DNA of 64,000 bases, taken from assembly GCA_038890815.1 (NCBI GenBank), contig JAWAFC010000003.1, positions 575-64,574 of the forward strand, in the 5' to 3' direction. This DNA comes from Candidatus Micrarchaeia archaeon (GTDB taxonomy: Archaea; Micrarchaeota; Micrarchaeia; Burarchaeales; JACRGF01). Both the position numbers and the translations under genes were made by a program. Below the pieces are notes generated by a model. It had not been told where the DNA came from. It did not search any database and worked only from the letters and a program-made list of their open reading frames with translations. Positions within the stretch are counted from its first letter, which is position 1. Each line of letters opens with the position of its first letter. Of the stretch, positions 3,054 to 25,231 are shown one piece after another.

Positions 3054-3084
<31 letters not shown>

Positions 3085-3851: not shown

Positions 3852-3895
<44 letters not shown>

Positions 3896-4078
3896 CCTTG
3901 CGGCCGTACTCCCCAGGTGGCAGACTTAACACTTACGCTACGGCACTGCACCGGCTCTAAGCCGGTGCAACACCTCAGTCTGCATCATTTACTGCTAGGG
4001 CTACTCGGGTATCTAATCCGATTCGTTCTCCTAGCCTTCGTCCCTCACTGTCGGACGCGTTTTGGTCGAGCGCCTTTT

Positions 4079-5153: not shown

Positions 5154-8100
5154 TCAACTCTGTGGAGAGGGGGAGCTACTCTCCTGCAGTTGTTTCATTC
5201 CCTCTATTATCTCATCAATATCATCTTTAATTACACCTATGCGTCTCAATGTTATTTCCTTGTCAGACCTCGAGCTGTCTGCAATATCATTTTTTATCAC
5301 ATCGGCTGTTGAGGAAAGCATTTCGAGAGCTTTAATATGTACTTTGATTTGCTCCTTGAGATCCCCTGGAAGCTGCACATGGGCGAAATAAGCATTCCTG
5401 TAGTTAGCCAGAAGTTTATCGAGCCCTTCCTCTTTTCCGCTGACTGTTTTCATTGCCTCTACTCCCGCATCGGCTGACCCGAAACCGGCCAGCACTTTTT
5501 CTTCCAGGCTCCGCAGCTCGCCCGTTATCCGCTCCTCTGATGCGCTGTCATGCGCTGCCTTAAACAGCGCTTCCCGCTGCTCCTCTGTGGACAGCACGCC
5601 GAGTGAGAAGAGCTTTCCGCCAAGCACATAGGCGCTCGCATCGTTACTATCCATGAAATCCCGCTGGTTGGCCTCCCAGCCTCCCAATGATGAGCGTGCC
5701 AGGTTTGCCTGGTTCTGAAGCAATGCAATCTTTCCCTCGAGTTCATTCAGCTCTTCCTTCACGGCATTCAGCCTTCTCACTTTTTCCTTGTACGCAAGAT
5801 AGTCCTCGGGCAGAGAAATCTCGTATTTAAATTTATCCTCGTATTTACCGCCGTATTTCTCGATGAGCTTTCTCTCGGCCTCCTCAATTTCATGCTCGTA
5901 TTTTTGTATGAGATCCTTCAACTTGTTTATCCGACCGCTTGTTTCATCAACTTTCTCGTCCAACTCCTTCCACTCCTTGTAACTCTTTTCTATGGCCGTG
6001 CCATTCTTTTTGAAGAGAAAGTCGCCTATCTCAATCGCGGCTTGGAGATACGGCATGCCTGAGATGGCTGATGGTAATGCGCTGGCGCGCTCAAATGCAT
6101 CTTTTTTGGCTTCGAGATTTTCTTGTGCATTGACTAACTCTAAATTGGCTTTTGCCGCGGCCTCCATAGATAAGGCGAGCTCATTGAATTTCTTTATTTC
6201 AGGAGGGGGCGACTCGCCCTCGAATATTATGGTGCCGTCGGCATTGTATTGAAGTTTTATGTTATTTTTTATAGCATAGTCGACAACGTCCGCGTACGCA
6301 TTCTCGAAGGCCTCGCGCTCTTTTTTTGAAAGTATTGCCAGCTGTTTTTCATAGTTTTTCTCTGCGGCATCCAGCCTGTCGCGCGCCAGCCTGTACTCCG
6401 CCTCTGCTTTCACAAGATCCAACGCCTCACCAATACCCTTAGCGGCATTCAGCTTCTCCAAGCCGCTTTTGACGGCTTCTTTGTTGTTATTATAGTCGGA
6501 GACGAGAGCGTTTGCCTTTTCTACAACATCTTTTGGCACTTCGGCGAGCTTTATGCTACCATCTTCGAAGCTCACCTGAAAGCCGTGCTTCGCCGCGAGC
6601 TCGAACAGCTGCTCTCGCGCGCTGGACATTTTTGAATAAGCATCCTTGATATCGGCCATGAGCCGGTTAGCATCTTCCTCGGCTTCACGCGTAAGTTTGG
6701 CGTTCCAGAAGTTGTCATTGAAAGTTTCGCACAACGCGAGGACTTCGTCCTGCTCGCGTTTCATCACATTTTTTTCTTTCATGTCCTTTTCCAAAGCCTC
6801 GCGATCAATATGGCCAGCAAGGGGACCCTCTGTGATGAATTTCAGCGAAATGCCGAGTTTTTTTGCAAGCTTTTCCAGCTTTTCTTTCGCTTCATCAGCC
6901 TTTTTCTGATACTCTTTGCTTCCCGGCTGTTCCTTTATTGTGCGCTCGAGCCGAGCAAATACAATGGCCTCTTCCAGCGCCGGAATGCGTGGGTCGTCTG
7001 GATTTTCCGCTCTGAGCCTGTTGAGCTCTGCTTCCATCTTATCCAATTTCGAGGTGATAGCATCGTTCAACCCTGCCATAAAGCTGCCCGTGGCAGGAGC
7101 AATCCCGCTGTCCCTCATACCCGTGTGCATGAGCAGCTGCGCCCTGCCGAGTTTGAGGAGTACTAACGATTGGTTTATCGCGCTCAATCCGTAGGCAAGA
7201 GCGTGAAGCCACAGCGGCCCGGCCGCTTTCTCCTTCGCAAACTCAGCATACTTGGCCTCCCACGTATCAAGTGTTTTAACTATCCAGCCTGCTGCCGGGC
7301 CTACTATCGGGATTTTCCTGGCAACCTCGGCACGTGTGAGCGGGCCACGGGCACCCCTTACGAGTCTCACCCTACCTGTGATAGCACCAGCAAGGTATGC
7401 AGGATTAGTATAAAGTGCGGCATAACGCACAGCCTTGCGCGAGTACTTCGCCGTCTGCTCAACTGCCACCATCCCCCATCCAAACGGGGTGTATTTGGCG
7501 AACCAGGTGTATTTGCCCTTTTCGTCGCGCAGCATTCTGGCAAACTGTCCACGGAGCTTCCCAAACGGTTTGCCTTGATACGAGGACCATCTGCCCGACA
7601 ACATCAGCATCAGCGGACTGAATTTTTTCCCTATGGCCTCTTGCTCTTGCTGGAAAAGTTGCTCCCTTTGCTTAATTGCTACATCAAGCTGCTTCTTGAG
7701 CGTAATGACTTCTTGTGTGTTCTTTGCATTCTTTATCTTAGTTTTCAGCTCTTTTATCGTGTTATTCAATTCCCTTCCTCTCTCGCTTCTGTTCACCCTT
7801 GCGGCCGCAGCCACCGCTATGCCGGATTGGATGAGTGCTGCGATGGAGGCGGTTGATATCATCATTGCTTGAGGCCCTCTCAGCCGCACCCTCGGGGGCG
7901 ACACGCGCGCGGTGAGGTCGAGCACGCCGAATGGATTGCGCCCGCTGGCGAACATCGCGGCGACCAAAAAGCTGACGATCAGGATGAGGGGGAAGCATTG
8001 GGTGAGGGTGAAGAGCGGCGGGATGCCGCCGGTGAGGCCCGAGGAGGAGTTGCTGGGCTGGAAGAGGTTATCGCCCTTGAAGAATGCGACCACCTCAAAG

Positions 8101-8810: not shown

Positions 8811-8831
8811 GATGATGAAAAAACGTCCATG

Positions 8832-8841
8832 TTTATAAATA
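8832..8841. promoter_or_regulatory. Shared, near-palindromic TATA box (TTTATAAATA) for two divergent leaderless genes (ORF-A on minus, ORF-B on plus)
   Basis: It sits 22-31 nt upstream of the minus-strand ATG (8810) and 20-29 nt upstream of the plus-strand GTG (8861). The whole intergenic region is only 50 bp. Confidence 0.5.
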
Positions 8842-8860
8842 CCTTTGAAGATGGAATGGC

Positions 8861-10078: not shown

Positions 10079-11829
10079 TTTTGCTTGCGGTGATGGGGCT
10101 GGCCATCGCCCAGCCGACATGCAGCGATCCGGCAACTGACACAAGGTATGGAGTGTGTTTCTCGCCTGGCTCGGGCACGGAGGAGCCATTTGAGTGCCCT
10201 AATGTCACGGATAAGTGGGGGAACAAACACAACAATTCGCAGTGGCTCAAGCAGACTCCCCTCGGGGATTTCGCCCTGTCGTGCGATGACCTCAATCCAT
10301 GCACTGAGGATTTTTTCGATGAGGACAAGGGGAAATGCATGTGCAGAGCAGTGCAGGATGGCTTCTATGGGGAGTGCGCGGGGCCGGATATGAGCGCGAG
10401 CAATGCGGCCTGCACCGAAAAGCGTTGCATTGGGGGAGTTTGCAAAACAATCACCGTTAAGGGAATAACCCCCATGTGCTCGGCAAGTGCTACCTACGAT
10501 TCACCTTGCAAGATAAATGTGTGCGAGAGCGGCGTCTGCACCGGGCCGAGGATTATTGGAGTGAATTTTGATTCGCAACGGGCGTGCTGCGGCAACGGCG
10601 AGCTGGAAGGCGATGAGAAGGATTGGTGCTGTGCAGACCTGCAGGCGACCGGCACGGGCCTGCCTGAGGGAAAGGAGTGCATCGGTGGCATAATGGTCAC
10701 AAAGAGCTATCTGGAGAGGGACCTTCAGCCCTTCATCAGGGCATTTCCATCGTGGGGGCCCGTCATCGTGCTCGCCCTTCTTATAGGCTATTTCCTCGCC
10801 GCGCTGGGCTACATGGCCGCGAGCTTTTTCAGGATGCCCGAGCTCGAGGCATGGGCAAAGAACGAGCTGGCTGAGGTGAGCGCAAGCGCGTTTTTTGCGG
10901 CCAATGCGATTTTTTTCATCGGGCTGATTGATGCGGCAGCTGTTGAGCTCATTGGGAAAGATTACTTCACCGTGGCGGCGAGCTTCCTCAACCTCCTGGC
11001 GGGCGAGACAGCGGCCATCATGGCCGAGCTGACGAGGGCGCAGTTCATTCTCGGATTCGGCTCAATGCTTGGAGTGCAGTTTGGTGTGCCTATATTTATT
11101 GTGATCGGATTCCTCGTGCCGGGCATGACGGCCTATCCTCTCGTGGGGGCTCGCATCATCACCACGGCGCTCGCCACCTATGGGAATGTCGCCACAATGA
11201 GCCTGATGAGCGCGCTCGGCATGGCCGTACTGCTGGAGTTCATAAACAGGTATGCGCTGACCGTCATACTGCCCGCTGGCATTGTGTTGAGGTGCTTCAC
11301 GCTGACGAGGCGGCTGGGGGCAACGCTCATGGCCATCGCAGTGGGCCTGTACGTGTTTTACCCACTGTCGCTGGCATGGAACGGCATGATATACGGCAAT
11401 GTGGAGAGGCCCAGCACGGGCGGCGTTTCGTTCATGAGCATCATAAACAACATCGTCGATCCCACGCCATTCCTTGAGATATTCGGCGGGCCCCCATTCA
11501 GGAGGTTCTGCGTGCACTGGTATGACTGGGTATGGTGCTGGTGGTATGCCATCATATGGTGGATCATCAACATGGTCATCGCATTCATCCAGCTTACCAT
11601 AGCGCTGGCCATGCTGTATTATGTTGGGCTTGCGACCACGCCCATAGGCGGCATCGGCGTGCTTGCATACGACTATTTTGTCGGTCTCATACCATCCATG
11701 ATTAGAACGATGGCGGGGGCATTCCTCTTCCCACTCATAGATCTAATTATAGTGGTTACGGCCATACGCTCGATATCGCCCGCCATTGGCGGGGAAACGA
11801 GGATAACGGGGCTGGTGGAGTTCATATGA
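10057..11829 (+). CDS. Membrane protein, paralog 1 of a six-member family, with an extra N-terminal ~200-aa cysteine-rich (EGF-like CxC) ectodomain
   Basis: A 590-aa ORF with a signal peptide and Cys-rich region. It then carries the family motifs GYMAASFFRMPELEAWAKNELAEV and LPAGIVLRCFTLTRRLGATLMAIAVGLYVFYP, plus the C-tail GETRITGLVEFI. Confidence 0.75.
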   Translation: MHTRAWLILLAVMGLAIAQPTCSDPATDTRYGVCFSPGSGTEEPFECPNVTDKWGNKHNNSQWLKQTPLGDFALSCDDLNPCTEDFFDEDKGKCMCRAVQDGFYGECAGPDMSASNAACTEKRCIGGVCKTITVKGITPMCSASATYDSPCKINVCESGVCTGPRIIGVNFDSQRACCGNGELEGDEKDWCCADLQATGTGLPEGKECIGGIMVTKSYLERDLQPFIRAFPSWGPVIVLALLIGYFLAALGYMAASFFRMPELEAWAKNELAEVSASAFFAANAIFFIGLIDAAAVELIGKDYFTVAASFLNLLAGETAAIMAELTRAQFILGFGSMLGVQFGVPIFIVIGFLVPGMTAYPLVGARIITTALATYGNVATMSLMSALGMAVLLEFINRYALTVILPAGIVLRCFTLTRRLGATLMAIAVGLYVFYPLSLAWNGMIYGNVERPSTGGVSFMSIINNIVDPTPFLEIFGGPPFRRFCVHWYDWVWCWWYAIIWWIINMVIAFIQLTIALAMLYYVGLATTPIGGIGVLAYDYFVGLIPSMIRTMAGAFLFPLIDLIIVVTAIRSISPAIGGETRITGLVEFI

Positions 11830-12803
11830 GGGCTTGGCTCATCGTGCTTGCACTCCTCCTTGCCGGCTGCACAGCCGAGCCACTCGCCGAGCTGCCTGGA
11901 TGCATCGCCCTGAGCGTGCGTGAGGAGCCGGAGCTGTATGGGTTGGTATTCGTGGCGCTGGTGGGCGTGCTGTTTGCCATCGCCATCGGCTACATGGCAG
12001 CCCAGCTTTTCAGGAGGCCTGACTGGGAAGCCATGGTGAGAGTGGAGCTCACCCAGACACTGCTGGGTGCGAGCATGATTTTCATCGCTGTGTGGCTGAG
12101 CGCATTCTCCTGCTCGATAAGCTATGAGCTTGCCGGGGGGGATACATTTGCCAAGGCAAACGCATACCTCGCAGGACTGACTTACGGGGAAATGATTCCG
12201 GCCATCATGAGGCTGTACGACAAGGCATGGCAGGCGGAGAAGCTGACGGCCTGGATCATTGGCATTTCCTCCTGCATGAGCGGCGTGTGTTTCCAGCCCT
12301 ATGCAGGCTACAGCATGGTTAGCTACAACCTCGGAACTGTGGCCGGCCTGCTCGCTCCCATCGTCACTTCGCTCATGGTGCAGATGCTCGCCCTCCAATT
12401 CATACAGCAGTTCGCATTTGTTTATCTGCTTCCGCTCGGCCTGCTGCTCAAGGCCGTGCCCTTCACAAGGGAAGCCGGCGCATTTCTCATCGCGCTCGCC
12501 ATCGGGCTGTATGTGGTCCTCCCGCTCACCTATATTTTCAATGCGAGAGTCATGGCGGACATCGGGCCGAGCATCACTGCGGGGAGCTACTGCGCGCTGA
12601 AGGCCGGGCCGGGTGACAAGCCAGGCGGGCAGGCGCTCGACAGCACGCTGGAGGGCGTTGGTGGGTTGTGCTCCACGGTCATTGCAGTTGTCGGGAAGAT
12701 TCTTCCGCAGGCAGTTTTCCTGCCCGCCCTCAACATAGTCATAACGCTCGCCTTTACAAGGACGATGGCGAGGATATTCACGCGGGATTACATGTTGGGG
12801 TAA
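11826..12803 (+). CDS. Membrane protein, paralog 2 (FtsX/MacB-like topology; novel family)
   Basis: A 325-aa ORF with an ATGA overlap to the upstream gene. Its motifs are IGYMAAQLFRRPDWEAMVRVELTQ and LPLGLLLKAVPFTREAGAFLIALAIGLYVVLP. Confidence 0.75.
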   Translation: MRAWLIVLALLLAGCTAEPLAELPGCIALSVREEPELYGLVFVALVGVLFAIAIGYMAAQLFRRPDWEAMVRVELTQTLLGASMIFIAVWLSAFSCSISYELAGGDTFAKANAYLAGLTYGEMIPAIMRLYDKAWQAEKLTAWIIGISSCMSGVCFQPYAGYSMVSYNLGTVAGLLAPIVTSLMVQMLALQFIQQFAFVYLLPLGLLLKAVPFTREAGAFLIALAIGLYVVLPLTYIFNARVMADIGPSITAGSYCALKAGPGDKPGGQALDSTLEGVGGLCSTVIAVVGKILPQAVFLPALNIVITLAFTRTMARIFTRDYMLG

Positions 12804-12807
12804 TGGC

Positions 12808-14025
12808 ATGCGGAAGATGATACACTTTGTGCTGCTTTGGCTTCTGCTTGCCAACAGCGTGGCTGCCGAACAGCAGTGTGAGGGCACGCGCATGTGCACG
12901 CTGTTCGCCAACTGGGCGCCCATCACTGCCATGGTCATACTCATCTCTCTCTTCGTTGTGTCGCTGGCCTTCATGGTGGGCAAGGGCCTCGGCATGCGGG
13001 ACATTGAGATGTTCGCCAAGGAGGAGCTGTACCAGTGCATTGCCAGCGCACTCATCCTCGGTGTGTTCATCAGTTTTGCGGCGCTCCTTGAGAGCACCTC
13101 GCAGCAGCTGGCCGGTGACATACTGACGGCCGGCACTCAGGGCACGACATTCGGCACACCAATCACAATGCGCTGGGAGTACACGGGCGACAGGAGCATG
13201 CGCTGGAGGACGACGGGCGCGCTCACCATAGAGAGATGCGGAGCTAACGACCCATTTCCCGATAAGAAATGCCACTTTTATTTGGCCAGGGCATTTTTGG
13301 GCAGCACGTTCGAAAAGCTGTCTGGGCAGGCGAGGGAGGTCGTAAAGCTGTATGGGCTCAGCATACTGTTTGACACCACATCCGTAAGCCTGGGGCTGCT
13401 TATCTTCGGACCCGTGTTTGGATTGGGGTTTGGCGTACCCCTTTTCGGTGGCAACAGCCTCCTGTACGAAACGCTCGAAACCATCTTCTCGGTCATGGCG
13501 AAGACGATGCTGCTGCTGAAATTCCAGGAGGTATCGCTCATGTACATCGAGAGGGGAATTTTCCCAGGCCTCATGATTGCCGGCCTCGTCTTCCGCTCCA
13601 TCTGGTTCATGCGGAAGCTCGGTGGGCTGCTGCTCGCGCTCGCCATCGGGCTATACACAATATTGCCGTTCATGTACATACTCAGCTGGTATACGATGGA
13701 TGCCGCACAGGCGAGGTATGATGTGAGCGCGCTGACCACCGCGCTTCAGAATAGGCAGAGCGCAGCGCAGGCCGTGATGGAGGAGCGGGGGCGTGATGTG
13801 GGGATAGGGCTATTTTTCCACCATGAGTACAGTGTGCTATTCACACACTACAGGTCTGATGGCAGCGTTGAGTACTATGGCATGCTCGATCTGGCCGGCA
13901 GGTATGCGCTCATAGCCATGGCAACGCCCACCATCGCGCTGTTCGTGCTGCTTGGTTTCGTGAGAGAACTGTCCGGCTTCCTGGGAGGGGACATTGAGAT
14001 CGCCGGACTGACGAGGATATTGTGA
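12808..14025 (+). CDS. Membrane protein, paralog 3
   Basis: A 405-aa ORF with the motifs LAFMVGKGLGMRDIEMFAKEELYQ and FPGLMIAGLVFRSIWFMRKLGGLLLALAIGLYTILP, and the C-tail GGDIEIAGLTRIL. Confidence 0.75.
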   Translation: MRKMIHFVLLWLLLANSVAAEQQCEGTRMCTLFANWAPITAMVILISLFVVSLAFMVGKGLGMRDIEMFAKEELYQCIASALILGVFISFAALLESTSQQLAGDILTAGTQGTTFGTPITMRWEYTGDRSMRWRTTGALTIERCGANDPFPDKKCHFYLARAFLGSTFEKLSGQAREVVKLYGLSILFDTTSVSLGLLIFGPVFGLGFGVPLFGGNSLLYETLETIFSVMAKTMLLLKFQEVSLMYIERGIFPGLMIAGLVFRSIWFMRKLGGLLLALAIGLYTILPFMYILSWYTMDAAQARYDVSALTTALQNRQSAAQAVMEERGRDVGIGLFFHHEYSVLFTHYRSDGSVEYYGMLDLAGRYALIAMATPTIALFVLLGFVRELSGFLGGDIEIAGLTRIL

Positions 14026-15212: not shown

Positions 15213-15220
15213 GTGGAAAC

Positions 15221-16258
15221 GTGAGCGTGTGTGCTGACCTGGCGAACTGGCCATCCGCCTGGTACACGGTTGCGGCCATCGGCATCGTGGCATCGGGCGC
15301 CGTCATTGGGTTGGTCTACATGATTGGGGTGACGCTCGGCAATCCCGGGCTCACCGCGCGCGCAAAGAACGAGATCTACCAAGTGGTGGCAACGCTGTGC
15401 ATGCTTGCCCTTGCCGTTGGGTTTGTGGGATTCGCCTGCACGGCCGATCTCAGCGGTTTCGGAGTGAGCGGAACGATCTATTCCGCCGCCGAGGCCTACC
15501 TCTCGTGGCTCGCCAGCCGCTCCATGTACGTGCTGGAGAGAATGATGCACCTGGCAGGGACGTGGGGATTTCTGGGCAGCATCGGCATGGGGATCACGAT
15601 AAGCGGCATAGGCTTCTCTTTCAACCCTTTCTCGGGCCTTTTTGGGCTTGTCAACATACTCAACATATTCATGTCGACAGCGCTCATCCTGTCGCTCACA
15701 ACGGCCGCGCAGTATGTGGTGTTCAAGTTCGCGCTTGAGGGCTTTCTGGGCTACCTCCTGCCTGTTGGTCTGGTGTGCAGGTGCTTCCCATTCACCCGCG
15801 ACTTCGGGGGCGCGCTGATTGCGCTCAGCGTAGGCTTCTCGCTGTTCTATCCATTCCTGTTCGCAGTGGACTGGGCGCTGGTGGGGCAGCCAACCAAGAG
15901 TACAATTGGAGGAGGGGGAGGAGATTTTGACAGGTGGGCGGTGGTGGATACGCTTGTGGGGTGGTATGTCTCCTTTGTAGTCGAGACTGTTGGTATCGTT
16001 ACCTTCTTTGCCGTCGTTGGAGTTCCGCTCATAATCCCGCCCATCCCGATTGTGAGCATACTGAAAATGCTCATGGAAATCTCCATCATGTTCCTTGATT
16101 CGATGATGCAGAGCGCGCTTATGCCGATAGGCGAAATACTTGTGGGCGGGCTTTTCCTGCCCGCGCTGAACGGCATCATACTTGTGGCTGTGGTGAGAGA
16201 TCTGTCGCGCGTGCTCGGCGAGGAGGTTGACATAACGACGCTGACGAGGATGGTTTGA
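15221..16258 (+). CDS. Membrane protein, paralog 5
   Basis: A 345-aa ORF with the motifs LVYMIGVTLGNPGLTARAKNEIYQ and LPVGLVCRCFPFTRDFGGALIALSVGFSLFYP, and the C-tail GEEVDITTLTRMV. Confidence 0.75.
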   Translation: MSVCADLANWPSAWYTVAAIGIVASGAVIGLVYMIGVTLGNPGLTARAKNEIYQVVATLCMLALAVGFVGFACTADLSGFGVSGTIYSAAEAYLSWLASRSMYVLERMMHLAGTWGFLGSIGMGITISGIGFSFNPFSGLFGLVNILNIFMSTALILSLTTAAQYVVFKFALEGFLGYLLPVGLVCRCFPFTRDFGGALIALSVGFSLFYPFLFAVDWALVGQPTKSTIGGGGGDFDRWAVVDTLVGWYVSFVVETVGIVTFFAVVGVPLIIPPIPIVSILKMLMEISIMFLDSMMQSALMPIGEILVGGLFLPALNGIILVAVVRDLSRVLGEEVDITTLTRMV

Positions 16259-17304
16259 TGACGTGGGAGACGAGCGCTGCTGATGTATACAAGACTTTCG
16301 GGGGCTATGGCTGGCTGGAAGTGGCCATGCTCGCCCTGCTCACCGCATTCCTGTCTGTCGCGCTCGCCTACATGCTCGCCATAGGGTTCAACCTGCCGAA
16401 CCTGAGGAGGTGGGCGAAAGCGGAATTTTATCAGGCTGCCGCGAGCGCCATGCTGGTGGCCCTCGTGTTCACGTTTGTTGAGGGAACAGATCTCCTGACT
16501 GGGGAAAGCCTGAAGTACTCGGCCGGCATCCAGCTGCTCCAGAAAAACACCGAGCTGTTTGCTGGCGACATCGTGGCGCCCGGCCAGAGGGGAAGGGTGA
16601 GGCCATTCAATGTTGTTTATGCACACGTGACCAACATGATAAACTGCGCCAGAGAAAAATACCTCAATGCCCTTGGCGAAACACAATGGCGGGAGTGGCT
16701 GACGCAGATTGTGATCACCCTGTCGATATATAAGATCGATTTGGTGATTCCGTTCCAGCTTCTCCTCTGGCCCCTCTACACGAACATCGTTGAGAACCAT
16801 GTCCTCGCCAACAGCCTTGTGTGGACGCTCATGGCCCTCTACTTCCAGCAGTCCTTCCTGCAGTGGGTTGAGACCTCGATGCTGACTGTGTTCTTCCCGC
16901 TCGGCATCATTTTGAGAATACTGCCCATCACGAGGGGAGCCGGAGCCGTGCTCATCGCCATCTCGCTGGGGCTCTACATCGTCTACCCGCTGCTGTTCAT
17001 ACTCATCGCCACAGCAGTGACTCCACCGAGCGGCTGCGCAAGGACCGAGATAACTCTCGAGCAGCCGCCCGAGATATGCGTCAGCGACCCATCGTCTTTC
17101 GTGCAGTTCCTAAAGGCAGCCGCACAGAGCAGAGGCACGCTCTACAGCGGGCAGGAGGCAAGCATGATGGCCCAGCTCACCATGTACGCCTTTTTCTATC
17201 CCCTCGTGATGATACTCATTGTGGTCATCTTTGTCAGGACGGCCTCCTCATTCCTCGGCGCAGAGATCACTGAGGTCGGGAGGGGGCTCTTCAGGCTGAT
17301 TTGA
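16255..17304 (+). CDS. Membrane protein, paralog 6
   Basis: A 349-aa ORF with an ATGA overlap. Its motifs are LAYMLAIGFNLPNLRRWAKAEFYQ and FPLGIILRILPITRGAGAVLIAISLGLYIVYP, and the C-tail is GAEITEVGRGLFRLI. Confidence 0.75.
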   Translation: MMTWETSAADVYKTFGGYGWLEVAMLALLTAFLSVALAYMLAIGFNLPNLRRWAKAEFYQAAASAMLVALVFTFVEGTDLLTGESLKYSAGIQLLQKNTELFAGDIVAPGQRGRVRPFNVVYAHVTNMINCAREKYLNALGETQWREWLTQIVITLSIYKIDLVIPFQLLLWPLYTNIVENHVLANSLVWTLMALYFQQSFLQWVETSMLTVFFPLGIILRILPITRGAGAVLIAISLGLYIVYPLLFILIATAVTPPSGCARTEITLEQPPEICVSDPSSFVQFLKAAAQSRGTLYSGQEASMMAQLTMYAFFYPLVMILIVVIFVRTASSFLGAEITEVGRGLFRLI

Positions 17305-17951
17305 TGCGCGCGTTCATCAAAAGAAACTTTCGGGCAGCGCTGGCGGCTGCGGCGTTCACTCTCGCCATACTGCTGGCCGCGCTTGCCTTTGTTGCCACAC
17401 CTCCACCATCCCAGCCTCCCCTCCCAGCGCAGGCTGAAGAAGTCCAGCCATCGGTGTGGGAGCCATTCCTGCCGCAGAACTGTAGCCCTTTCTTTGCCCC
17501 GACGACTGCCTCGTATGTCTATGCGGTGCGGTTCTCTGCTGGGGGCACTGACATAACAGGGCAGGTAAGCCATGAGCTCATATCGAGCAATGACTCATAC
17601 ACCATGAGGGATGTGCTGACAACGCCATTCGGAAAGTCTGCAATAGTTTGGGAGCTTGCGCCTGACCTGAGCTGCCGCCGGGTGCGCGCGAGCGCGGAGA
17701 TGAGCGGCATGCAGAGGGTGGACCGAGAGCTTCCGTGCGTGCCGCCCATTCCGTTTTTTGGGGCACCCTGCAGGGAGGAGATGGTGCTGAAGGGACTTAC
17801 AAACGCCAGCACGCCTTTCGGCACGATACCGGCAAAGGTTTATCATGCTACATCATCCAATGCTACATACATTGTGGCGAACAACATCGATGTGCCTCTC
17901 AAATTCGCCATTGGCAACATGCAGGGGGAGCTGATAAGATATGAAGAGTAG
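17301..17951 (+). CDS. Small N-terminally anchored or secreted protein of the same operon
   Basis: A 216-aa ORF with an ATGA overlap upstream and an 11-nt overlap with the downstream giant gene. It has a hydrophobic N-terminus followed by a Pro-rich linker. Confidence 0.55.
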   Translation: MMRAFIKRNFRAALAAAAFTLAILLAALAFVATPPPSQPPLPAQAEEVQPSVWEPFLPQNCSPFFAPTTASYVYAVRFSAGGTDITGQVSHELISSNDSYTMRDVLTTPFGKSAIVWELAPDLSCRRVRASAEMSGMQRVDRELPCVPPIPFFGAPCREEMVLKGLTNASTPFGTIPAKVYHATSSNATYIVANNIDVPLKFAIGNMQGELIRYEE

Positions 17952-20900
17952 AGTGCTCCTGCCGCTGCTTTTGGCGGCTGTGGTGCTGTCGAGCTGCGTG
18001 CTCAAGATAACCCCCAGGGTATCGCTGCCGACCTTCTCGCCCTCGCTAGGAGTGGCCGAGGCGCCATCAACCTGCAAAGAGCCGCCTTGCTACTGCATGG
18101 TGGAGGAGCAGCGCTATCGCTACAAGACATGGAGCTGCACGGGCAGTGCGGCCTCTGTGTGCGGCGAATTTGCCGGCGCAGCGGCCTGTTTCTTCAACTC
18201 AAGCGAGGGGGACTGGTGTGAGTATGTCGGAGGGGGAAGCGGCGGGCAGGGTAATTATCTGTGCTTTCAGTGGAATGGCTGCTATGACCCGGGAGGCTAC
18301 TATGTGCATGTCAAATGCAACTGCTGGTTCCAGGATGACATCGAGGTAGATTTCCTAGGTACAAAGAAGCCGGAGGATTTCAAATGCGGCTGCTTCATCT
18401 GTCCGGGCTGCCCGAGCACAAAGCTGAAATGCTGCGATCCGGAGTGCGCCACGCTCAACCTCACCTATGCCAAGCTTGCTGACGGCAGCGATGACACGGC
18501 CAGGCCGACCGGCATACAGAGGGATGCCGCAACAAACGCCCCACTGATAACGCGCAGGAAATGTGGGGAGGTGAGGCCGAGCATTCCTGGGCTGGGGAGC
18601 GGGCCTGCCATGGAAACGGCCTTTGCGCCCGGGCCGGCTGGATGTAGGGTGAACTGCACTTACGGCGACACAGCAAACTACTATTGCTATAAGAAAACGG
18701 CCAACGAGTTCAGCATCCACAGGAACTGCAAGACAGCATGGCTCTCCACGCTGCAGGGCGGAAGGCTGCTCACTGTCATTCCGTGCGATGCGCAGGAGAT
18801 GGCGCGCATCGTGAATTCGCCAACAAAAAAGCTCGTGCTTTTCAAAATAGGGCAGGGCCAGAGCCTCCAGGACTTCGAGTTTGCTAAGCAGCAGTGCCGG
18901 CTCGTCCCGCCCGATGTGCACAGGGTCACCATGGGCAAGCTCACTTTTGAGCCGACAGAGGCGAGCGTGCCGAGCTATGTGCGCTTCTGTTTCGAGAACA
19001 AAGACATCAAGCCACACAGCGTTTGCCAGAGCCAGGCAGGAGCGTGCATGCCCAATGGCCTCGCCTTTGACATCAAGCCCGAGGCCAGCGCCTGCATTGA
19101 GAGCGATGGCCTGGAGAGGCTTGGGGAGGGCAGCCACACCTTCATGGATGGCTTTTCAAAAGAGGAGTTCGTGCTCACGATAAAAAAGGCCGAGGCAGTC
19201 TTCGCCCTGCGCGATGCCATAAGCCCGCCCTATCTCGTGGGCTTTGAGAATGTTGGCGTGCGCTTTGAAAGCTATGCTGACATCGATAGGGAGATTCGGC
19301 CCATCGGCTTCTTTGACAGCATGCCGCCATTCAGTGTGCCGGCTAGGGGCCAGACAACCATGCAATTCAGGCCAGGGGTGTGGATGCTGAACGATACGGC
19401 GACCGGCACGCTCGCCACGCTGTTCGTGCTGAGCGAGACAAGAGATGTGAGGATTGGCGATGACATGGGGCCGGAGCGCATCGCCATACTCAGCGGCAGT
19501 GAGGTTTGCTTCAACAACACGCGCGGGGAACCCGTAGAGCTCGAAATATACGAGCGCTATGTGGGCGGCTTTTCGTACATCATGAACAAGAGCGTCGTGC
19601 CCGGAGGAAAGTGCTGTTGGACTCCGGAGCCTGGCAAGTATTTCGTCAATGCCAGCGGGGTTGGGGGAAACACGACGATATTTGTGGGAGAGGAGGCAGG
19701 GGCTGTGTTTGTCAGGATAAACAATCCAGAGTACTCGCCGCCTGAGCTGCTAACAAAGGTCGGCATGCGGGTGTGCTTTGTCAATCCATCAACAAAGGAA
19801 AGGACTGTGAGCGGTGGCGGCGCGTCGCTGGCCATACCGGCAAAATCGTTTGATTGCTCGTGCGTGCGCGTGCCGTGCCTCGTTGTTGAATCTGAAGGCA
19901 CGAACACATACGAGGACAGCGTCACCAAGGCCGTGTTCAAGGTCAGCGCGACGAGGAAGGAGAACAAGTTCATGAACATCACCGCTTACGGCATTTTCCC
20001 GCAGGGCGTGCTGTTCGATGGGCCCGGCAGCGTCTGCTTTGCCAACAAGGACAATGTCGAGCATGAGGTGAAGCTTGCCGAGAAATATCTCCATGTCGGT
20101 GGTGCTGTCAGACGATTGGCGGGCACGGAGAGCGTTAGGGTGGCAGCAGGCGACATCGGCTGCATCGAGCTGCCCGATGCCAATGGCTCTTTTGTGTTCA
20201 CCACATCCGGCAGGGCCGGCGAGCTAGTTGGGGTTGCTGTGAGAAACGATGCCCCGCCGAAAGCCGATCTGGCCGATCCAGTGGCGCGCAAGGCGGCTGA
20301 GGGCGTGGCGCGCATATACTTCACGCGGGCTGGGCCATTCCCGCGCGTACAGAGGGTGGGGAGCTTTGGCGACATCGAGCTGTGGAACGCCGACAACAAG
20401 CCGCACACTGTGACTGTGAACACTCAGACGCCATGCGACCAGCCTGATGCCTCGGGGGTAACGCACAGGCTGTGCCCCACCGTGAGCCTGAAAACATGCG
20501 ATGGGGGCGGGTGTGGGGGAGTCATCTGGCAGAGCAGGATGAAGTTCAAGCCCACAGACCCTCCGGCCATCGAGATACCCCCAAAGACCTACACATTCAC
20601 GGACGCTGGGAATAAGGCGAGCGTTGAGGTCATCAGCAAGGGCTTTGAGGTCGAGCTGGAGGCCATGGGCATTCCCACGCCATCCATTGCATCGCCACAG
20701 ACGATGGGCGGGAACCTGAACCTCATAAACCTGTTCAGGAGCGGGCCCATGCCTAAGACAACGCTGATGGCGCTCAGGGGATACATCCACCAGAACATCA
20801 TACCGGTCATCACGACATCGTTCGGCGGGCCGGGGCAGAGGGTTGTTGAGGAGATAGTCAAAACAGAGAGCGTGGAGACTTTGGAGTCTACGGCCGGCAG

Positions 20901-23900
20901 CAATCTCATCATCTACAACGGCGACAGGGTGGCGCACAAGGTCGCATTCGGTGCGCTGTTATATGATTATCCGGCATTGCTGGATTGGTTTGGGGACAAG
21001 GAGCTGCCGCCATGCGGCAACTGCGATGTTACAGACCCGACCAGCGATTGTGCAAAGAGATGCGCCATTTATTTCAATGAGAGCGGCACTTGGTGGGCGA
21101 GCGATGATGAAACAGCAGGGAAGGTGGAAAACGATCCTCCTGCAGTGCGCCCAATGCCGGCTGGCATATTTGTCGTGATCGACATCGGGTATGGCCAGAA
21201 CATTGAGGAATACAATGAATATGTGGCTTGCGGCGAGGATGCGGGCTGCAGAGTCAGCAAAGGGATTGCGCTATTCTGGAGAGTGCTTTATGGAGAGCCG
21301 ATTCCAGCAAAAGTTTACGGGATTTTTGTTGCGAGCGGGGAGAAAGAGCTTGAGGTTTCGCTGGACAGAACAAAAGAAACTGGATGGGGATGTGCTGGCT
21401 ATTGCCAGTTTGATGAGAGATGCCTCGACACAAACTCGGAGTATTACAAGCTCTTCAAGGATTTCTGCGATGCTCCGGCCGAGATAAAGGATCAGGGCGG
21501 AAACATAATATGGAGTGGCAGCAAAAGAGATTGTTATAATCGGTGCAAAAACAGCATCAGCAGCAGTGCCGTTGATCTGAGACTCAAAAACAGCGAGTCC
21601 GACAACTCGGCCCGCGTCTGCTTCAGGAATGATGGCTGGAAGACGAGGCACCTGCGCGTGCTCGACTGGCTTGTTGCAAAAGATGATGGAGGCTCCGTGA
21701 GCCTGCCTTATCATGGAACTAACCAGCATCCGATAAACGAGAGCTACACTGTGTTTAAGGAAAGTGGCGGCACATATTCAAAGGCATTTGATATAATTCT
21801 CGCAACGGACATCCCCGAGCCTGAGGTGATCATCGGCGATGAGAGGGAGTTCGCCACGCGCAATTACGCCGATTCGCTACGCTTTGTTTCGCCGACACAG
21901 ATAAAATTCAGCATCAAGACGAGCGACAAGAGGGAGCTGTTCTACAGGGAAAAGGCTGACGGGGAGTGGAAGCCCTTCCTGCTTGTGAACGGCGTGGATG
22001 ATGGCAGGGGATGGAAGGCGATTGCAAGCAATGGCCAGACGCTCTATTTCCCAACAGATTTCAGCGGCTTTGGCCAGGATTGGCATGGCCAGATAGACAT
22101 TCTGGACAACGGCACAATTCTCCCTGGATGCACTTTGATACCGATGCCATTTGGTTGTGCCGGCCCCGGTATTGTTGTGGATGCCTCCTATGATGCGAGC
22201 GACGATTCCTTCTCTGGTTTCTCGGGTTGTGATGTGAGCCGGTATGAAAAAACCGTGAAGGGGGATGTCGTCTATGACTCTACCAACATGTACCAGAAGT
22301 GCCTTTCTGACGCTCGCGCGGAATGCGATGCGCAGGCTAAGAAATACGCTGATGAGATGTGCAGGCAGGACCCGGCTACCACGCCGTGCAAAAACAATGG
22401 ACCATGCCAGGCCAACCCAGACCCAAATGTGGGTGGAGACTGCTGCGCTGACTCCGACTGCTCCTGCCCGAGAAGCTGTGAACAGGGAGCTGGTTGCGAG
22501 CCTGACTATAGCTGCATCGACGAATGCAATGTCAAGTGGCAGAACTACATTGCCTGCATCTCGCCTTCTGGCGACTACTACAGCTCAAACTACGGTGCAT
22601 GCTATGCTGAGAAAAGCGCCGAGTGCGAGGCCAATTGGAGGAAGGACGTGACGCTCACCTATAAGAACGTCACCTGCAGCGGCCTGGCGACTACGGACGT
22701 GCCCTATGAGCACATCATCTACACGCCGCCAAACAGAGTGGTGTGGTGGTACAAGTTGGAAAATGGCCGGCTCGAAGAGCTGTTTAACTTCGGCTTGTCG
22801 GACAGCTTTGTTAATGGAGTCAACTCCTACTTTTATGTAGTCAGCAACGATAGCATGCTCGTTGGCTCGAGCGATGAGAGCATCATCCCAGTGCCAAAAA
22901 ACAACAAAATCACCTTCCAGTACGTTTTCACTTACAGATATCAGCTCACAAAGGGCAGCAACAAAATCATCAGGCTTGAATATGGCCTGCCTGTCGATGT
23001 CAAAAATGCCAGGCTGAACGTTATGCTTCCTGTCGACTCGCCCGTGTTCAGCTGGAAAGGGGATGCTATGATAAACCAGACCTATGATGATGATAAGATC
23101 AGGAACATCCCGCCGGGCGAGATGGGGTGCTTTGAGGCGCCTTTCCCAAGCTGGCCAACAAACAAGGGCTATGATCAGCTCGATGGCTATGTGATTTATG
23201 ATGCTGACGAGCTGGAGGACTACACGCGGTTGAAAAATAAGAATTTCTATAAAGAAGTCGGCCAGAGCTGGAGCAATGATAATGATAGGCTGTTCAACCA
23301 CGTGTGGGCTTACCAGTTCTTCGGAAGCAGTGCAGTGCCAAACAACCTCTATCCAGAGGCAACGAGGTTTGTCGAGCTTGCCGACTTTGACTGGGGGACA
23401 AGGCTGGGTGCTGTGGCGACATCGCCCGGAGGCTCGGTGACGCTCAAGAACAAAGCCGAAAGCGATGCGGTTGGCATAACGAACCACATAACCTATGAGG
23501 TGAGCAACGGCCTGTACCAGCATGTGTGTCCGGGTTATAAATGCCCTGATGGAGTTGATGGCAAGATCGTCCCGCCCATAAAACCGGATAAACCGAGCGA
23601 GAGGTATTCAGAAGATGATTGCAAGGGCGAAAACCCGCGTGCAGGGTGCCGGTACTTCTTCAGGGTTGATGGAGGTGGTGCCCTCACGCTTGCCGGGCTG
23701 GAGCCGGGCAGCTACAAAATAACTGAGAGCGTCAGCGACAAATCCATAGTCATAAACTCAAAGAGGACAGACATCGTGCTGCCGCTTATCTATGAAAGCT
23801 GGGACCCGACATTCTCCACCGTGATGAGCGGCAGTGAGATTTGCGTGAGGAACACCGATGAAAAGCCCAGGACTGTGACGCTGAAGGGTGGGTGTGGATG

Positions 23901-24978
23901 GGTTGAGAAGTGCATAATATGCATTGGACAGATGTGTTTTGGCTGTTATAACAGTTGGGAATGTAGCAGCAATATGGGAAGCAAAGAGATGCGGAATGGT
24001 GAGCTGTGGTGTCCTGTGGCGAGCGCAAACCAGAACTATGCATTTGTCGATGAGCTGACAGGCGCCATACTGCCCGTTGAGGTCAAGAGCGCATGCGATG
24101 GCAGTGAGCTGGAGCCGATTGCCAAGAGGCTTGTCAGCTACGATCCGCCGGAGAGCGTTTGGAGGCTGCCCGAGTTTGACAGGTACAGCGACTACAACCC
24201 GCACGGGCCTGCCGTGCCATCGATCGTCACCGCGCCTGTCGGGCTGCCAAACGAGGGGTGGGCAAAGGACTGCATAGCCAACGCGCTCAGGAATATCAAA
24301 GAGAAATGCCCCAACTGTACGAGCGTGTTGCCCGTGCCAAACGACATCCCGCTCGATGAGCAGAAGGCATTCATCAACTTCTACAGGAACGATGCGGACA
24401 GGTGGAAGTACGTTGATCTCGTGGGGCAGTTCGCCTTCCTCGGCGAGAGAGGGGTGTGCAACGCCACCCAGCTGATGCGGGACAAAATCAACATCTCGCA
24501 GTATGCTGTGTGGTCGCCCCCGGGCACGCAGGGCGCTCGGTCGAGGCTCAGCATACTGCTCGGCTATGGCATTCCGGATGCGTCCGTGAGCGCGTGGGGG
24601 GGCAGCGGGTGCTTTAGCGGCATGGGGCAGAGCGAGGCGAGGAAGGAGGCAGCGCTCGCCTTCAAAGAGGTGTTTGAGGTGCTGCTGCCCGAGATGATTG
24701 GCAGTGGGATGGTGGGCATGTCGATGCACTGCCTGACCGATGGCAGCTGCCTGCCATGGGCGCAGAGCGGGGGCAAGGCGCTCCCGCTTGGGCTCTATGA
24801 TTCCAGTGGGGAGAAGGACCCGGCGGCCCAGATGTGGTGGAAGAAATGCGGTAGCTACTTCTATGCTGGCGAGGGCCTACTGCCAGTGCTGGGAGCAGCT
24901 GAGGAAACAAACGCGAGCACATGCGACCCCTCGAGGCTGTGGGCAGCTTATCAGCAATATAAATGTGGCGTTGTATAA
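17941..24978 (+). CDS. Giant secreted cysteine-rich protein (2345 aa), probably a multi-domain beta-rich surface or adhesin-like protein
   Basis: A single uninterrupted 7-kb ORF with signal peptide MKSRVLLPLLLAAVVLSSC. Cys clusters run throughout (CYCMVEE, CNCWF, CGCFICPGCPSTKLKCCDPEC, CCADSDCSCPRSCEQGAGCEPDYSCIDEC) and there are many NxS/T sequons. There is no C-terminal TM segment. Confidence 0.8.
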   Translation: MKSRVLLPLLLAAVVLSSCVLKITPRVSLPTFSPSLGVAEAPSTCKEPPCYCMVEEQRYRYKTWSCTGSAASVCGEFAGAAACFFNSSEGDWCEYVGGGSGGQGNYLCFQWNGCYDPGGYYVHVKCNCWFQDDIEVDFLGTKKPEDFKCGCFICPGCPSTKLKCCDPECATLNLTYAKLADGSDDTARPTGIQRDAATNAPLITRRKCGEVRPSIPGLGSGPAMETAFAPGPAGCRVNCTYGDTANYYCYKKTANEFSIHRNCKTAWLSTLQGGRLLTVIPCDAQEMARIVNSPTKKLVLFKIGQGQSLQDFEFAKQQCRLVPPDVHRVTMGKLTFEPTEASVPSYVRFCFENKDIKPHSVCQSQAGACMPNGLAFDIKPEASACIESDGLERLGEGSHTFMDGFSKEEFVLTIKKAEAVFALRDAISPPYLVGFENVGVRFESYADIDREIRPIGFFDSMPPFSVPARGQTTMQFRPGVWMLNDTATGTLATLFVLSETRDVRIGDDMGPERIAILSGSEVCFNNTRGEPVELEIYERYVGGFSYIMNKSVVPGGKCCWTPEPGKYFVNASGVGGNTTIFVGEEAGAVFVRINNPEYSPPELLTKVGMRVCFVNPSTKERTVSGGGASLAIPAKSFDCSCVRVPCLVVESEGTNTYEDSVTKAVFKVSATRKENKFMNITAYGIFPQGVLFDGPGSVCFANKDNVEHEVKLAEKYLHVGGAVRRLAGTESVRVAAGDIGCIELPDANGSFVFTTSGRAGELVGVAVRNDAPPKADLADPVARKAAEGVARIYFTRAGPFPRVQRVGSFGDIELWNADNKPHTVTVNTQTPCDQPDASGVTHRLCPTVSLKTCDGGGCGGVIWQSRMKFKPTDPPAIEIPPKTYTFTDAGNKASVEVISKGFEVELEAMGIPTPSIASPQTMGGNLNLINLFRSGPMPKTTLMALRGYIHQNIIPVITTSFGGPGQRVVEEIVKTESVETLESTAGSNLIIYNGDRVAHKVAFGALLYDYPALLDWFGDKELPPCGNCDVTDPTSDCAKRCAIYFNESGTWWASDDETAGKVENDPPAVRPMPAGIFVVIDIGYGQNIEEYNEYVACGEDAGCRVSKGIALFWRVLYGEPIPAKVYGIFVASGEKELEVSLDRTKETGWGCAGYCQFDERCLDTNSEYYKLFKDFCDAPAEIKDQGGNIIWSGSKRDCYNRCKNSISSSAVDLRLKNSESDNSARVCFRNDGWKTRHLRVLDWLVAKDDGGSVSLPYHGTNQHPINESYTVFKESGGTYSKAFDIILATDIPEPEVIIGDEREFATRNYADSLRFVSPTQIKFSIKTSDKRELFYREKADGEWKPFLLVNGVDDGRGWKAIASNGQTLYFPTDFSGFGQDWHGQIDILDNGTILPGCTLIPMPFGCAGPGIVVDASYDASDDSFSGFSGCDVSRYEKTVKGDVVYDSTNMYQKCLSDARAECDAQAKKYADEMCRQDPATTPCKNNGPCQANPDPNVGGDCCADSDCSCPRSCEQGAGCEPDYSCIDECNVKWQNYIACISPSGDYYSSNYGACYAEKSAECEANWRKDVTLTYKNVTCSGLATTDVPYEHIIYTPPNRVVWWYKLENGRLEELFNFGLSDSFVNGVNSYFYVVSNDSMLVGSSDESIIPVPKNNKITFQYVFTYRYQLTKGSNKIIRLEYGLPVDVKNARLNVMLPVDSPVFSWKGDAMINQTYDDDKIRNIPPGEMGCFEAPFPSWPTNKGYDQLDGYVIYDADELEDYTRLKNKNFYKEVGQSWSNDNDRLFNHVWAYQFFGSSAVPNNLYPEATRFVELADFDWGTRLGAVATSPGGSVTLKNKAESDAVGITNHITYEVSNGLYQHVCPGYKCPDGVDGKIVPPIKPDKPSERYSEDDCKGENPRAGCRYFFRVDGGGALTLAGLEPGSYKITESVSDKSIVINSKRTDIVLPLIYESWDPTFSTVMSGSEICVRNTDEKPRTVTLKGGCGWVEKCIICIGQMCFGCYNSWECSSNMGSKEMRNGELWCPVASANQNYAFVDELTGAILPVEVKSACDGSELEPIAKRLVSYDPPESVWRLPEFDRYSDYNPHGPAVPSIVTAPVGLPNEGWAKDCIANALRNIKEKCPNCTSVLPVPNDIPLDEQKAFINFYRNDADRWKYVDLVGQFAFLGERGVCNATQLMRDKINISQYAVWSPPGTQGARSRLSILLGYGIPDASVSAWGGSGCFSGMGQSEARKEAALAFKEVFEVLLPEMIGSGMVGMSMHCLTDGSCLPWAQSGGKALPLGLYDSSGEKDPAAQMWWKKCGSYFYAGEGLLPVLGAAEETNASTCDPSRLWAAYQQYKCGVV

Positions 24979-24985
24979 TGACGAC

Positions 24986-25231
24986 ATGGCTCAGGTCGCT
25001 GCGGTCGTGAGGATTTTCCCGCAGGATGCGGAGAGGGTCGAGGAGCTGAGGCAGAGAGTGGAGAGCGAGCTGCGCCCGAGCAGGATCGAGATCGAAGACA
25101 TAGGCTTTGGCGTGAAGGCGCTGCGGATCACGCTCATCCTCAGCGATGAGACGGGCGGCGATGTAGAGGAAAGGGTGAGGAGGATACCTGGCGTCAGCGA
25201 GGTGAGTGTGGAGAGCGTGGGGAGGCTTTAG
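24986..25231 (+). CDS. Translation elongation factor aEF-1 beta
   Basis: The sequence MAQVAAVVRIFPQDAERVEEL...IGFGVKALRITLILSDETGG...IPGVSEVSVESVGRL matches the conserved aEF1B layout. The longer track ORF starting at 24740 is an upstream extension that overlaps ORF-J. Confidence 0.75.
   Translation: MAQVAAVVRIFPQDAERVEELRQRVESELRPSRIEIEDIGFGVKALRITLILSDETGGDVEERVRRIPGVSEVSVESVGRL

Follow-up and report, generated by a model that had tools for sequence, protein, structure and literature searches.

A conserved array of six VirB6/CedA-like membrane proteins with a giant cysteine-rich partner in Micrarchaeota, a candidate locus for host contact

Gene content and layout of the locus

We describe here a cluster of ten open reading frames (ORFs), designated A to J, which occupies positions 5154–24978 of a 64-kb stretch of DNA belonging to a metagenome-assembled genome (MAG) of a DPANN archaeon of the Micrarchaeia (contig JAWAFC010000003.1). 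This whole stretch is called the window below, and related loci on other contigs are referred to by L-numbers. The core of the cluster is a row of six paralogous membrane proteins, C to H, which quite probably belong to the superfamily containing VirB6, CedA and TedA, and the cluster ends with J, a giant cysteine-rich protein having a signal peptide. All ten ORFs had been listed in a first-pass annotation of this DNA, and all were found again by ORF scan and translation. The features of the locus and of its two flanks are as follows.

5154–8810, minus strand: ORF A, 1218 aa
8811–8860: divergent spacer between ORFs A and B, 50 bp, with a single palindromic TATA element, TTTATAAA
8861–10078, plus strand: ORF B, 405 aa
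10057–11829, plus strand: ORF C, 590 aa, first of the six VirB6-like paralogs
11826–12803, plus strand: ORF D, 325 aa, second VirB6-like paralog
12808–14025, plus strand: ORF E, 405 aa, third VirB6-like paralog, with the C-terminal tail ...LGGDIEIAGLTRIL
14022–15212, plus strand: ORF F, 396 aa, fourth VirB6-like paralog, the one used for structure modelling
15221–16258, plus strand: ORF G, 345 aa, fifth VirB6-like paralog, with the C-terminal tail ...LGEEVDITTLTRMV
16255–17304, plus strand: ORF H, 349 aa, sixth VirB6-like paralog
17301–17951, plus strand: ORF I, 216 aa, bitopic membrane protein
17941–24978, plus strand: ORF J, 2345 aa, with 100 Cys and 20 N-X-S/T sequons
24986–25231, plus strand: gene for aEF-1beta, starting 7 nt past the stop codon of ORF J
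2714–4849, minus strand: 16S rRNA gene, on the flank of ORF A

Genes B to J are tightly packed, as the first-pass annotation had pointed out. With its start codons, the successive junctions from B to J are −22, −4, +4, −4, +8, −4, −4 and −11 nt, the largest gap being 8 nt; if the start chosen for ORF C by the gene caller of the public assembly (10093) is adopted, the product is 578 aa long and a 14-nt gap follows ORF B. Each of the ten products has either a signal-like or transmembrane (TM) segment at its N-terminus or several TM segments, and the earlier statement that every gene encodes a membrane or secreted protein is therefore sustained. The same is true for its statement that the GC content is host-like, because the values for the locus (0.52–0.62) are inside the range across the window (0.47–0.62). 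When products A to J were scanned against Pfam and NCBIfam, nothing significant was found except a weak CedA match of ORF F. Proteins G, I and J, recorded at NCBI as hypothetical proteins of a "Candidatus Micrarchaeia archaeon" MAG, are present also in a Logan assembly.

The TATA element TTTATAAA is located at 8833–8840, ~26 nt from the ATG of ORF A and ~24 nt from the GTG of ORF B. Such spacing is expected for an archaeal bidirectional promoter that is shared by two genes with leaderless transcripts. The spacer that had been called a 50-bp divergent promoter is thus present with one palindromic TATA element, and this arrangement fits a bidirectional promoter giving leaderless mRNAs, a role that we infer from the element and its position. 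At the opposite end, the transcription unit may reach the aEF-1beta gene, which would then be co-transcribed with ORF J. The corresponding gap is 295 nt in L006, and we do not count aEF-1beta among the functional components of the system.

A family of six paralogous membrane proteins

The C-terminal 360 aa of C and the proteins D, E, F, G and H align over their full length with 24–34% identity and are true paralogs. The first-pass annotation had recognized six paralogs and had described them as permease-like; the paralogy holds, and the permease label has to be replaced by VirB6/CedA-like on the basis of the evidence given below. ORF C is composed of a Cys-rich N-terminal ectodomain of ~230 aa fused to the VirB6-like membrane domain, the latter being matched at 2.5e-65 by a hidden Markov model (HMM) of the family core. 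Common to C–H is the motif LLPxGxxLRxFxFTRxxGGxLIAxAxGxYxxxP. In addition, all of them except D terminate in the tail LGx(D/E)V(D/E)xxxLxRxx-COOH, which was found in 119 of the 148 family members checked.

The size of the family became apparent only by an exhaustive HMMER search of 1.84 billion cluster representatives, which gave 3100 matches at E<=1e-3 and 689 at E<=1e-30; a word-indexed homolog search had returned 9 proteins for the paralogs, 2 for J and 1 for I. The members are named only "hypothetical protein" in the source databases. Among 104 members no Pfam family was found recurrently, and there is no Pfam model for the family.

We deduced the topology of C–H from hydropathy, the distribution of basic residues (TM1–TM2 loop, FTR turn, tail) and the sites at which Cys-rich segments are fused or inserted, including an insert of ~700 aa that follows the YxxxP helix in the member P0132. 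The proteins are thus predicted to have the N-terminus outside, ~5 TM helices with long outward helices, a basic cytoplasmic FTR turn (LRxFxFTRxxGG) and the C-terminus inside.

Large ectodomains are not confined to the C protein of the window. In other lineages they are fused to the paralogs C, E or G or to that at the F position, or are inserted into the E paralog. For example, the E ortholog in L025 has an N-terminal extension of ~1150 aa with faint matches to Ig-like (Big) domains, and that in L024 has a Cys-rich loop insert of ~800 aa. Members with large fusions or inserts include P0132 (1109 aa), P0048 (1469 aa), P0128 (1494 aa) and P0058 (1295 aa). As to the types of fused ectodomains, one has weak beta-helix/NosD matches, one is the aforementioned faintly Ig-like type and the others are Cys-rich, some of the Cys-rich modules repeating the motif C..NCPP..DPDGD..Y.W. 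These fusions show membrane domains that apparently serve as carriers of large extracellular modules.

Probable relationship to VirB6 and CedA, and single-copy relatives

We regard it as quite probable that the C–H family belongs to the VirB6/CedA/TedA superfamily, on the basis of several independent lines of evidence, each of which is modest individually. Among 18,950 NCBIfam models, CedA is the only one matched repeatedly (by 7 of the 104 members, with a best value of 3.9e-5). The family consensus matches CedE at 1.5e-4, and the consensus of the F orthogroup matches both CedA and CedE, with a value of 4.4e-3 in either case; one conserved core of ~75–100 residues accounts for all of these matches. 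CedA and CedE are VirB6 homologs, CedE being a paralog of CedA (PMC9905601; bioRxiv 10.1101/2024.09.27.615246). The topology deduced for C–H agrees with that published for VirB6 (PMC7648143). The predicted structure of ORF F has long protruding helices, and the best extended structural match of this model is VirB6, a tentative similarity in fold.

Another line of evidence comes from relatives that occur as single copies. At nine loci from Micrarchaeota or Iainarchaeum (L012 and L014–L021), one family member, matched by the core HMM at 1e-45 to 1e-62, is encoded in a conserved operon having the order VirB2-like pilin, VirB6-like protein, 245-aa protein, CedB/VirB4-like ATPase, 215-aa protein and, further on, a protein of ~750 aa; L019 8798–16853 is an example. 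The gene directly 5' of the family member encodes a protein of 120–156 aa with a signal peptide and a pair of hydrophobic helices connected through a PPEKK loop. This protein matches the Pfam family T4SS_pilin (PF18895) at 2.4e-5, and its predicted architecture is that of the VirB2/TedC pilins. The ATPase encoded two genes downstream of the family member has CedB as its best NCBIfam match (7.8e-22), followed by VirB4, TraC and CedD. Between the N-terminal helix-loop-helix of the family and the pilin type encoded next to it, a weak co-linear alignment was obtained (hhalign E 0.008, probability 5%); a similar alignment between pilin and channel has been reported for VirB2/VirB6 and for CedA1/CedA.

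The pilin/ATPase operon looks, as judged from its gene content, like a complete minimal system of the Ced/Ted type and is likely the true counterpart of Ced/Ted in Micrarchaeota. A VirB6-type neighbourhood, i.e. a pilin together with a VirB4-type ATPase, is therefore found for the family but not for the six-gene locus of the window. No description of either locus type in DPANN was found in the searchable open-access literature.

The partner proteins

ORF A begins with a signal peptide and a Cys-rich ectodomain of ~245 aa containing 23 Cys. A TM segment (~272–290), an Arg-rich stretch and a basic, partly hydrophobic region of ~250 aa follow, and residues 591–1218 form a charged stretch, low in Pro and Gly, with a coiled-coil-like heptad periodicity that is interrupted. 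The first-pass annotation had estimated this coiled coil at ~900 aa; the charged, helix-type stretch is in fact ~630 aa long. The helical part contains 1 Cys, in contrast to the 23 of the ectodomain, and 1 sequon against 2.5 expected. Because the TM segment precedes it, the Arg-rich stretch follows that segment, and Cys and sequons are few, the long helical part is probably cytoplasmic, which makes unlikely an external stalk of the tetrabrachion type, a feature that the first-pass annotation had proposed to look for. The arrangement characteristic of tetrabrachion, an extracellular coiled coil with a C-terminal TM anchor, was not found in ORF A. Notable matches of ORF A to Pfam, NCBIfam or PDB sequences were also absent. 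Orthologs of A occupy the same divergent position in L005, L006, L008, L010 and L011, and an A-like gene is present in L024.

The signal of ORF B resembles a lipobox (LLLLLAGC); its linker has 7 N-X-S/T sequons crowded within ~35 aa, and its helical repeats with Cys pairs contain 27 Cys. It had been counted as a member of the cluster, but it is not conserved: an ortholog was found only in L005, the closest relative, the gene is absent from L006, L010 and L011, and a UbiA-domain protein is encoded instead in L008. ORF B is thus a lineage-specific accessory gene.

ORF I has a single N-terminal TM segment and an ectodomain of ~170 aa that carries four invariant Cys, and its orthologs are located directly 5' of the giant gene in L005, L006, L008, L011 and L025. 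A comparison by hhalign with the proteins of the pilin/ATPase operon revealed no relation. In L005 there is a second gene for a small protein of the ORF I type (76–762, plus strand), on the far side of the A ortholog.

ORF J has a signal peptide, no further TM segment and a Cys content of 4.3%. Neither a Pfam match at E<=1 nor a match to a PDB sequence was found. Orthologous giants of 1888–3195 aa, with 3.8–4.0% Cys, are present at the same position in L006, L008, L011 and L025; in L005 two ORFs represent the ortholog, which is cut off where the contig ends. Conserved modules were recognized in the N-terminal part (residues 1 to about 750 or 1000) and in the C-terminal part (~1920–2342, i.e. 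~420 residues), and the centre is variable and not alignable. Conserved ends with a variable centre would be the pattern expected of a docked protein that exposes a fast-evolving interaction surface. L025 contains a second J-like giant upstream of the array, together with a 616-aa protein having as much as 18% Cys.

We also considered whether J is an S-layer protein, since identity with a known S-layer system had been named in advance as an outcome that would contradict the first-pass annotation. The S-layer protein of Micrarchaeota, SLP_Mh, is a 101-kDa protein with the domain PF05123 and is almost without sulfur amino acids. J lacks PF05123 and is Cys-rich, in contrast to the nearly Cys-free SLP_Mh, and a significant Pfam match, and hence any S-layer domain, is absent from all of A–J. 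The S-layer identity of J was therefore rejected, and an S-layer system is excluded insofar as the S-layer protein known from Micrarchaeota is taken as the reference.

Conservation and chromosomal context

The order C-D-E-F-G-H is conserved with 1:1 orthology in the window and in L005, L006, L008, L010 and L011, ORF C being always the first, and six members in a row were found also in L013 (Candidatus Micrarchaeum sp.), L024 and L025. All 12 of the related loci found in GTDB species representatives come from MAGs of Micrarchaeota or Iainarchaeum. A crenarchaeal origin of the window, which the 16S insertion and the GC content had at first suggested, was discarded in view of this distribution and of the NCBI names. 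The fixation of six orthogroups in distant genomes indicates that the duplication is old and that both the number and the order of the genes are under constraint. Scattered homologs had been named as the other outcome that would speak against a dedicated locus; in fact at least eight further contigs carry the components together and in an unchanged order. Giant Cys-rich proteins additional to the above adjoin the array in L024 and L025, and large proteins without Pfam matches follow J in L008 and L011.

The viral contigs of IMG/VR contained no relatives of either locus type, so that nothing points to mobility of the loci. We regard the locus as part of the Micrarchaeota chromosome and as a cluster that is inherited vertically.

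Rad50 follows J both in the window and in L006, and the genes for aEF-1beta, a Mut7-C protein and a tetratricopeptide repeat (TPR) protein are also common to the two. The linkage to herA and rad50 is absent around the arrays in L008, L011, L013, L024 and L025, where the neighbours differ; in L013, for instance, the array sits between the genes for leucyl-tRNA synthetase and two FtsZ proteins. The linkage to Rad50 most likely reflects plain local synteny of the chromosome. A functional link to Rad50/HerA was considered and set aside as unlikely; HerA is a repair enzyme, and among the loci compared the linkage was found only in the window and L006.

Proposed function and alternative explanations

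The first-pass annotation had regarded the locus as a native one dedicated to an envelope or cell-contact structure and not to metabolism. This general direction has stood, and the permease label, the inclusion of ORF B and the ~900-aa coiled coil of ORF A have not. With a confidence that is somewhat better than even, we favour the explanation that the locus encodes a platform derived from a type IV secretion system (T4SS), in which six VirB6-like subunits form a hetero-oligomer that displays giant, disulfide-rich, adhesin-like modules for contact with a host, with A serving as a cytoplasmic scaffold. Cultivated members of this group are all small, host-dependent symbionts (PMC11329633, PMC8784108), and it is the nature of the organism, a DPANN Micrarchaeon, that shifts the likely biology to host contact.

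In the proposed mechanism, the anciently duplicated proteins C–H would assemble as one membrane platform, each unit of which would contain every type once; that they form a single hetero-oligomeric complex is argued mainly from the fixed set and order of the six orthogroups. The platform would carry or dock disulfide-rich modules, namely the ectodomain of C (in other lineages those of E, F and G), I, the ectodomain of A and the secreted J. The giant J might attach through its conserved terminal modules and expose the fast-evolving central region, and the long helical part of A would probably be a cytoplasmic scaffold. The whole assembly would then act at the cell surface as an organelle of host contact and might also be a conduit between cells. 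Formation of the hetero-oligomer, docking of J, host contact and any transport are steps that we infer from the patterns of sequence and gene order described above.

A more far-reaching possibility, to which we assign a low probability, is that the six VirB6-like proteins form a hetero-hexameric port without an ATPase, which would be both the docking structure and the conduit to the host on the DPANN side. J and the fused ectodomains would recognize the host, and A would engage the C-terminal tails. A candidate for such a port is the unidentified "barrel-shaped complex" reported for the Micrarchaeon ARM-1, which lies beneath the S-layer at the site where host nanotubes enter (PMC11329633).

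Several results weigh against the favoured explanation or against its foundation in the VirB6 superfamily. No single line tying the family to VirB6 is strong: the CedA and CedE matches score 16–22 bits, compared with curated cut-offs of 330–400; none of the 104 members matches Pfam TrbL/VirB6 at E<=0.1; the family profiles match nothing among PDB sequences; and a first, poorer model gave no VirB6 match. The hhalign comparison of the family profile with the single TrbL sequence of R751, a test of low power, was blank. In the genomic context, HMMs of the pilin, the ATPase and three further operon proteins revealed no pilin, no VirB4/CedB-like ATPase and no other relative of these operon proteins in the 64 kb of the window, the only match being the repair protein HerA at 31527–33029 (2.5e-17). 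Lastly, the array of L013 is not accompanied by a recognizable A, I or J, and these may therefore not be obligatory partners.

An alternative that the sequence affinities themselves bring to mind is import or exchange of DNA in the manner of Ced/Ted, in which C–H would be the DNA channel, J and A would pair the cells, and the DNA would be passed to Rad50, HerA and NurA. The sole HMM affinities of the family involve two proteins of DNA import, CedA and CedE, and its single-copy relatives accompany a pilin and a CedB-like ATPase. Rad50 starts ~0.7 kb past J, HerA and NurA are encoded within 11 kb, Rad50 comes after J also in L006, and the Ted loci of Pyrobaculum and Vulcanisaeta likewise carry rad50 and herA (PMC9905601). 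We nevertheless consider this explanation unlikely. Neither the locus nor the rest of the window encodes a pilin or an ATPase of the VirB4/CedB/TedB type, and the HerA of the window is an ordinary repair enzyme, whose best PDB matches are HerA-type helicases, among them 4d2i at 1.2e-32. Moreover, L006 is the only other locus with this Rad50 neighbourhood, and the aEF-1beta, Mut7-C and TPR genes accompany it there as in plain synteny; the genes past J are different in L008 and L011, as are those surrounding the arrays of L013, L024 and L025.

The missing ATPase and pilin would be no difficulty if the locus encoded a machine for the biogenesis or anchoring of giant disulfide-rich envelope proteins (an insertase, an export platform or an anchor) having no role in cell contact. 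All of the products are membrane or secreted proteins, J has no membrane anchor beyond its signal peptide, and extra giants lie near the array (L024, L025) or large proteins after J (L008, L011). The signal peptide of J is, however, of the ordinary Sec type, so that no special exporter is needed, and the S-layer protein of Micrarchaeota is a different kind of protein (PF05123, 101 kDa, almost Cys-free), whose domain is absent from A–J. The variable centre of J and the lineage-specific fusions of ectodomains resemble, in addition, interaction surfaces under diversifying pressure rather than structural components of an envelope. This explanation, too, appears to us improbable. Far less probable still is that C–H are ordinary solute transporters with unrelated surface proteins as neighbours. 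The six proteins are polytopic, with at least five hydrophobic segments, as transporters would be, but no Pfam or NCBIfam transporter was matched recurrently among the 104 members, the predicted model has protruding helices with VirB6 as its best extended structural match, and a fixed array of six orthogroups, fusions of up to ~1150 aa and an invariant C-terminal tail are atypical of transporters.

Comparison with known systems

The known archaeal systems most pertinent to the platform proposed here, and probably of common ancestry with it, are Ced of Sulfolobales and Ted of Thermoproteales. Their parts are VirB6-like proteins (CedA, CedE, TedA), pilins (CedA1, TedC) and VirB4-like ATPases (CedB, CedD, TedB). 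Like the system proposed for the present locus, they are chromosomal, minimal and T4SS-derived and function in single-membrane organisms, and they provide the only recurrent sequence signals to C–H. The gene arrangement of the single-copy operon of Micrarchaeota (pilin, VirB6-like protein, CedB-like ATPase) resembles that of the ted loci. The locus of the window differs in having six paralogs, instead of one or two in Ced and one in Ted, and no pilin or ATPase; the combination of ATPase and pilin with a channel protein, which makes up a complete Ced/Ted system, was not found in the window. The giant Cys-rich J, the bitopic Cys-containing I and the long helical A also have no counterparts in Ced or Ted.

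With respect to the multiplication of VirB6 paralogs, the closest parallel is bacterial. In the rvh T4SS of Rickettsiales, VirB6 is present as 4–5 tandem paralogs, and giant extensions of some of them are exposed at the surface (PMC2653234, PMC7648143). The two systems are alike in having a conserved tandem array that is syntenic within the lineage, huge hydrophilic extensions (up to thousands of residues) and a host-dependent organism with a reduced genome. They differ in that rvh is bacterial, belongs to diderm cells, has 4–5 copies with virB3 and virB4 in the same operon and has the rest of the T4SS elsewhere in the genome; its members match Pfam TrbL/VirB6, whereas the archaeal C–H do not. 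A VirB3- or VirB4-like gene is absent from the operon of the window, and the likeness to rvh is one of analogy and not of membership, probably reflecting convergent expansion.

VirB6/TrwI of R388 (PDB 7o3v) has, similarly to C–H, the N-terminus outside, ~5 TM helices and the C-terminus inside, but it forms a homo-pentamer capped by VirB5, as part of a machine of 11 proteins, and it has no detectable sequence similarity to C–H. The conserved C-terminal tail and the FTR turn motif of C–H were not found in the VirB6 literature covered. For the episymbionts of the Candidate Phyla Radiation (CPR; Patescibacteria), T4SS parts including virB6 have been reported to be essential for epibiotic growth (PMC12102498). 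A T4SS-derived apparatus in these ultra-small episymbionts would be a point of resemblance to Micrarchaeota, but in the CPR systems and those of monoderm conjugation VirB4 is retained beside a single VirB6, mostly together with VirB3- and VirB8-like parts. Pairing of a VirB6-like channel with large surface adhesins is familiar from monoderm conjugation, in which PrgH is combined with PrgB.

In the open-access literature on DPANN or Micrarchaeota and T4SS, VirB or Ced, we found no description of the six-gene cluster. What is known already is the VirB6-like building block and, in bacteria, the expansion of its paralogs. The fixed six-fold array, the missing ATPase and pilin and the partners A, I and J are without a described counterpart.

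Other features of the window

The 16S rRNA gene on the flank of ORF A spans 2136 nt, compared with 1478 nt of the model. Insertions of 40 and 53 nt were aligned, and a large one must lie further on. An ORF of 179 aa (3132–3671, minus strand), without an NCBIfam match, is located inside the 16S gene on the rRNA strand, and protein-coding insertions in 16S genes have been reported for the Micrarchaeota ARM-1 and ARMAN-2 (PMC8784108). The spacer between the 16S and 23S genes (2327–2713, ~390 nt) is devoid of tRNA genes, and the 64-kb window as a whole yielded none.

On the opposite flank, the gene for the Mut7-C (PIN-like) protein (25194–25709, minus strand) overlaps the 3' end of the aEF-1beta gene by 38 nt. 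Rad50 (~25.7–28.0 kb, plus strand), HerA (31527–33029, minus strand) and NurA (35376–36413, minus strand) are dispersed over ~11 kb on both strands and do not form the usual operon. Several ORFs lie between these three genes; two of them that were tested, both between HerA and NurA, had no Pfam match, and no Mre11 was identified among the window ORFs tested. Farther along, 49733–52090 (minus strand) is an ORF of 785 aa without a Pfam match, and the segment 54001–56000 has a GC content of 0.47, in contrast to ~0.58–0.61 around it, and may be foreign or atypical.

Significance for DPANN biology

It has long been asked how DPANN archaea adhere to their hosts and how material passes between the two. 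Cryo-electron tomography of a cultured Micrarchaeon has revealed nanotubes and docking complexes, to which no proteins have been assigned (PMC11329633). The locus described here gives a conserved and testable candidate. If the proposed explanation is true, machinery derived from T4SS would extend from Crenarchaeota, where Ced and Ted are found, to DPANN, and Micrarchaeota would have a second kind of locus that resembles a complete minimal Ced/Ted-type system. There would also be a parallel with the VirB6 expansions of the obligate intracellular Rickettsiales and with the dependence of CPR episymbionts on T4SS. Co-cultures that already exist would probably allow the array to be studied, since the genus Micrarchaeum (L013) has it as well.

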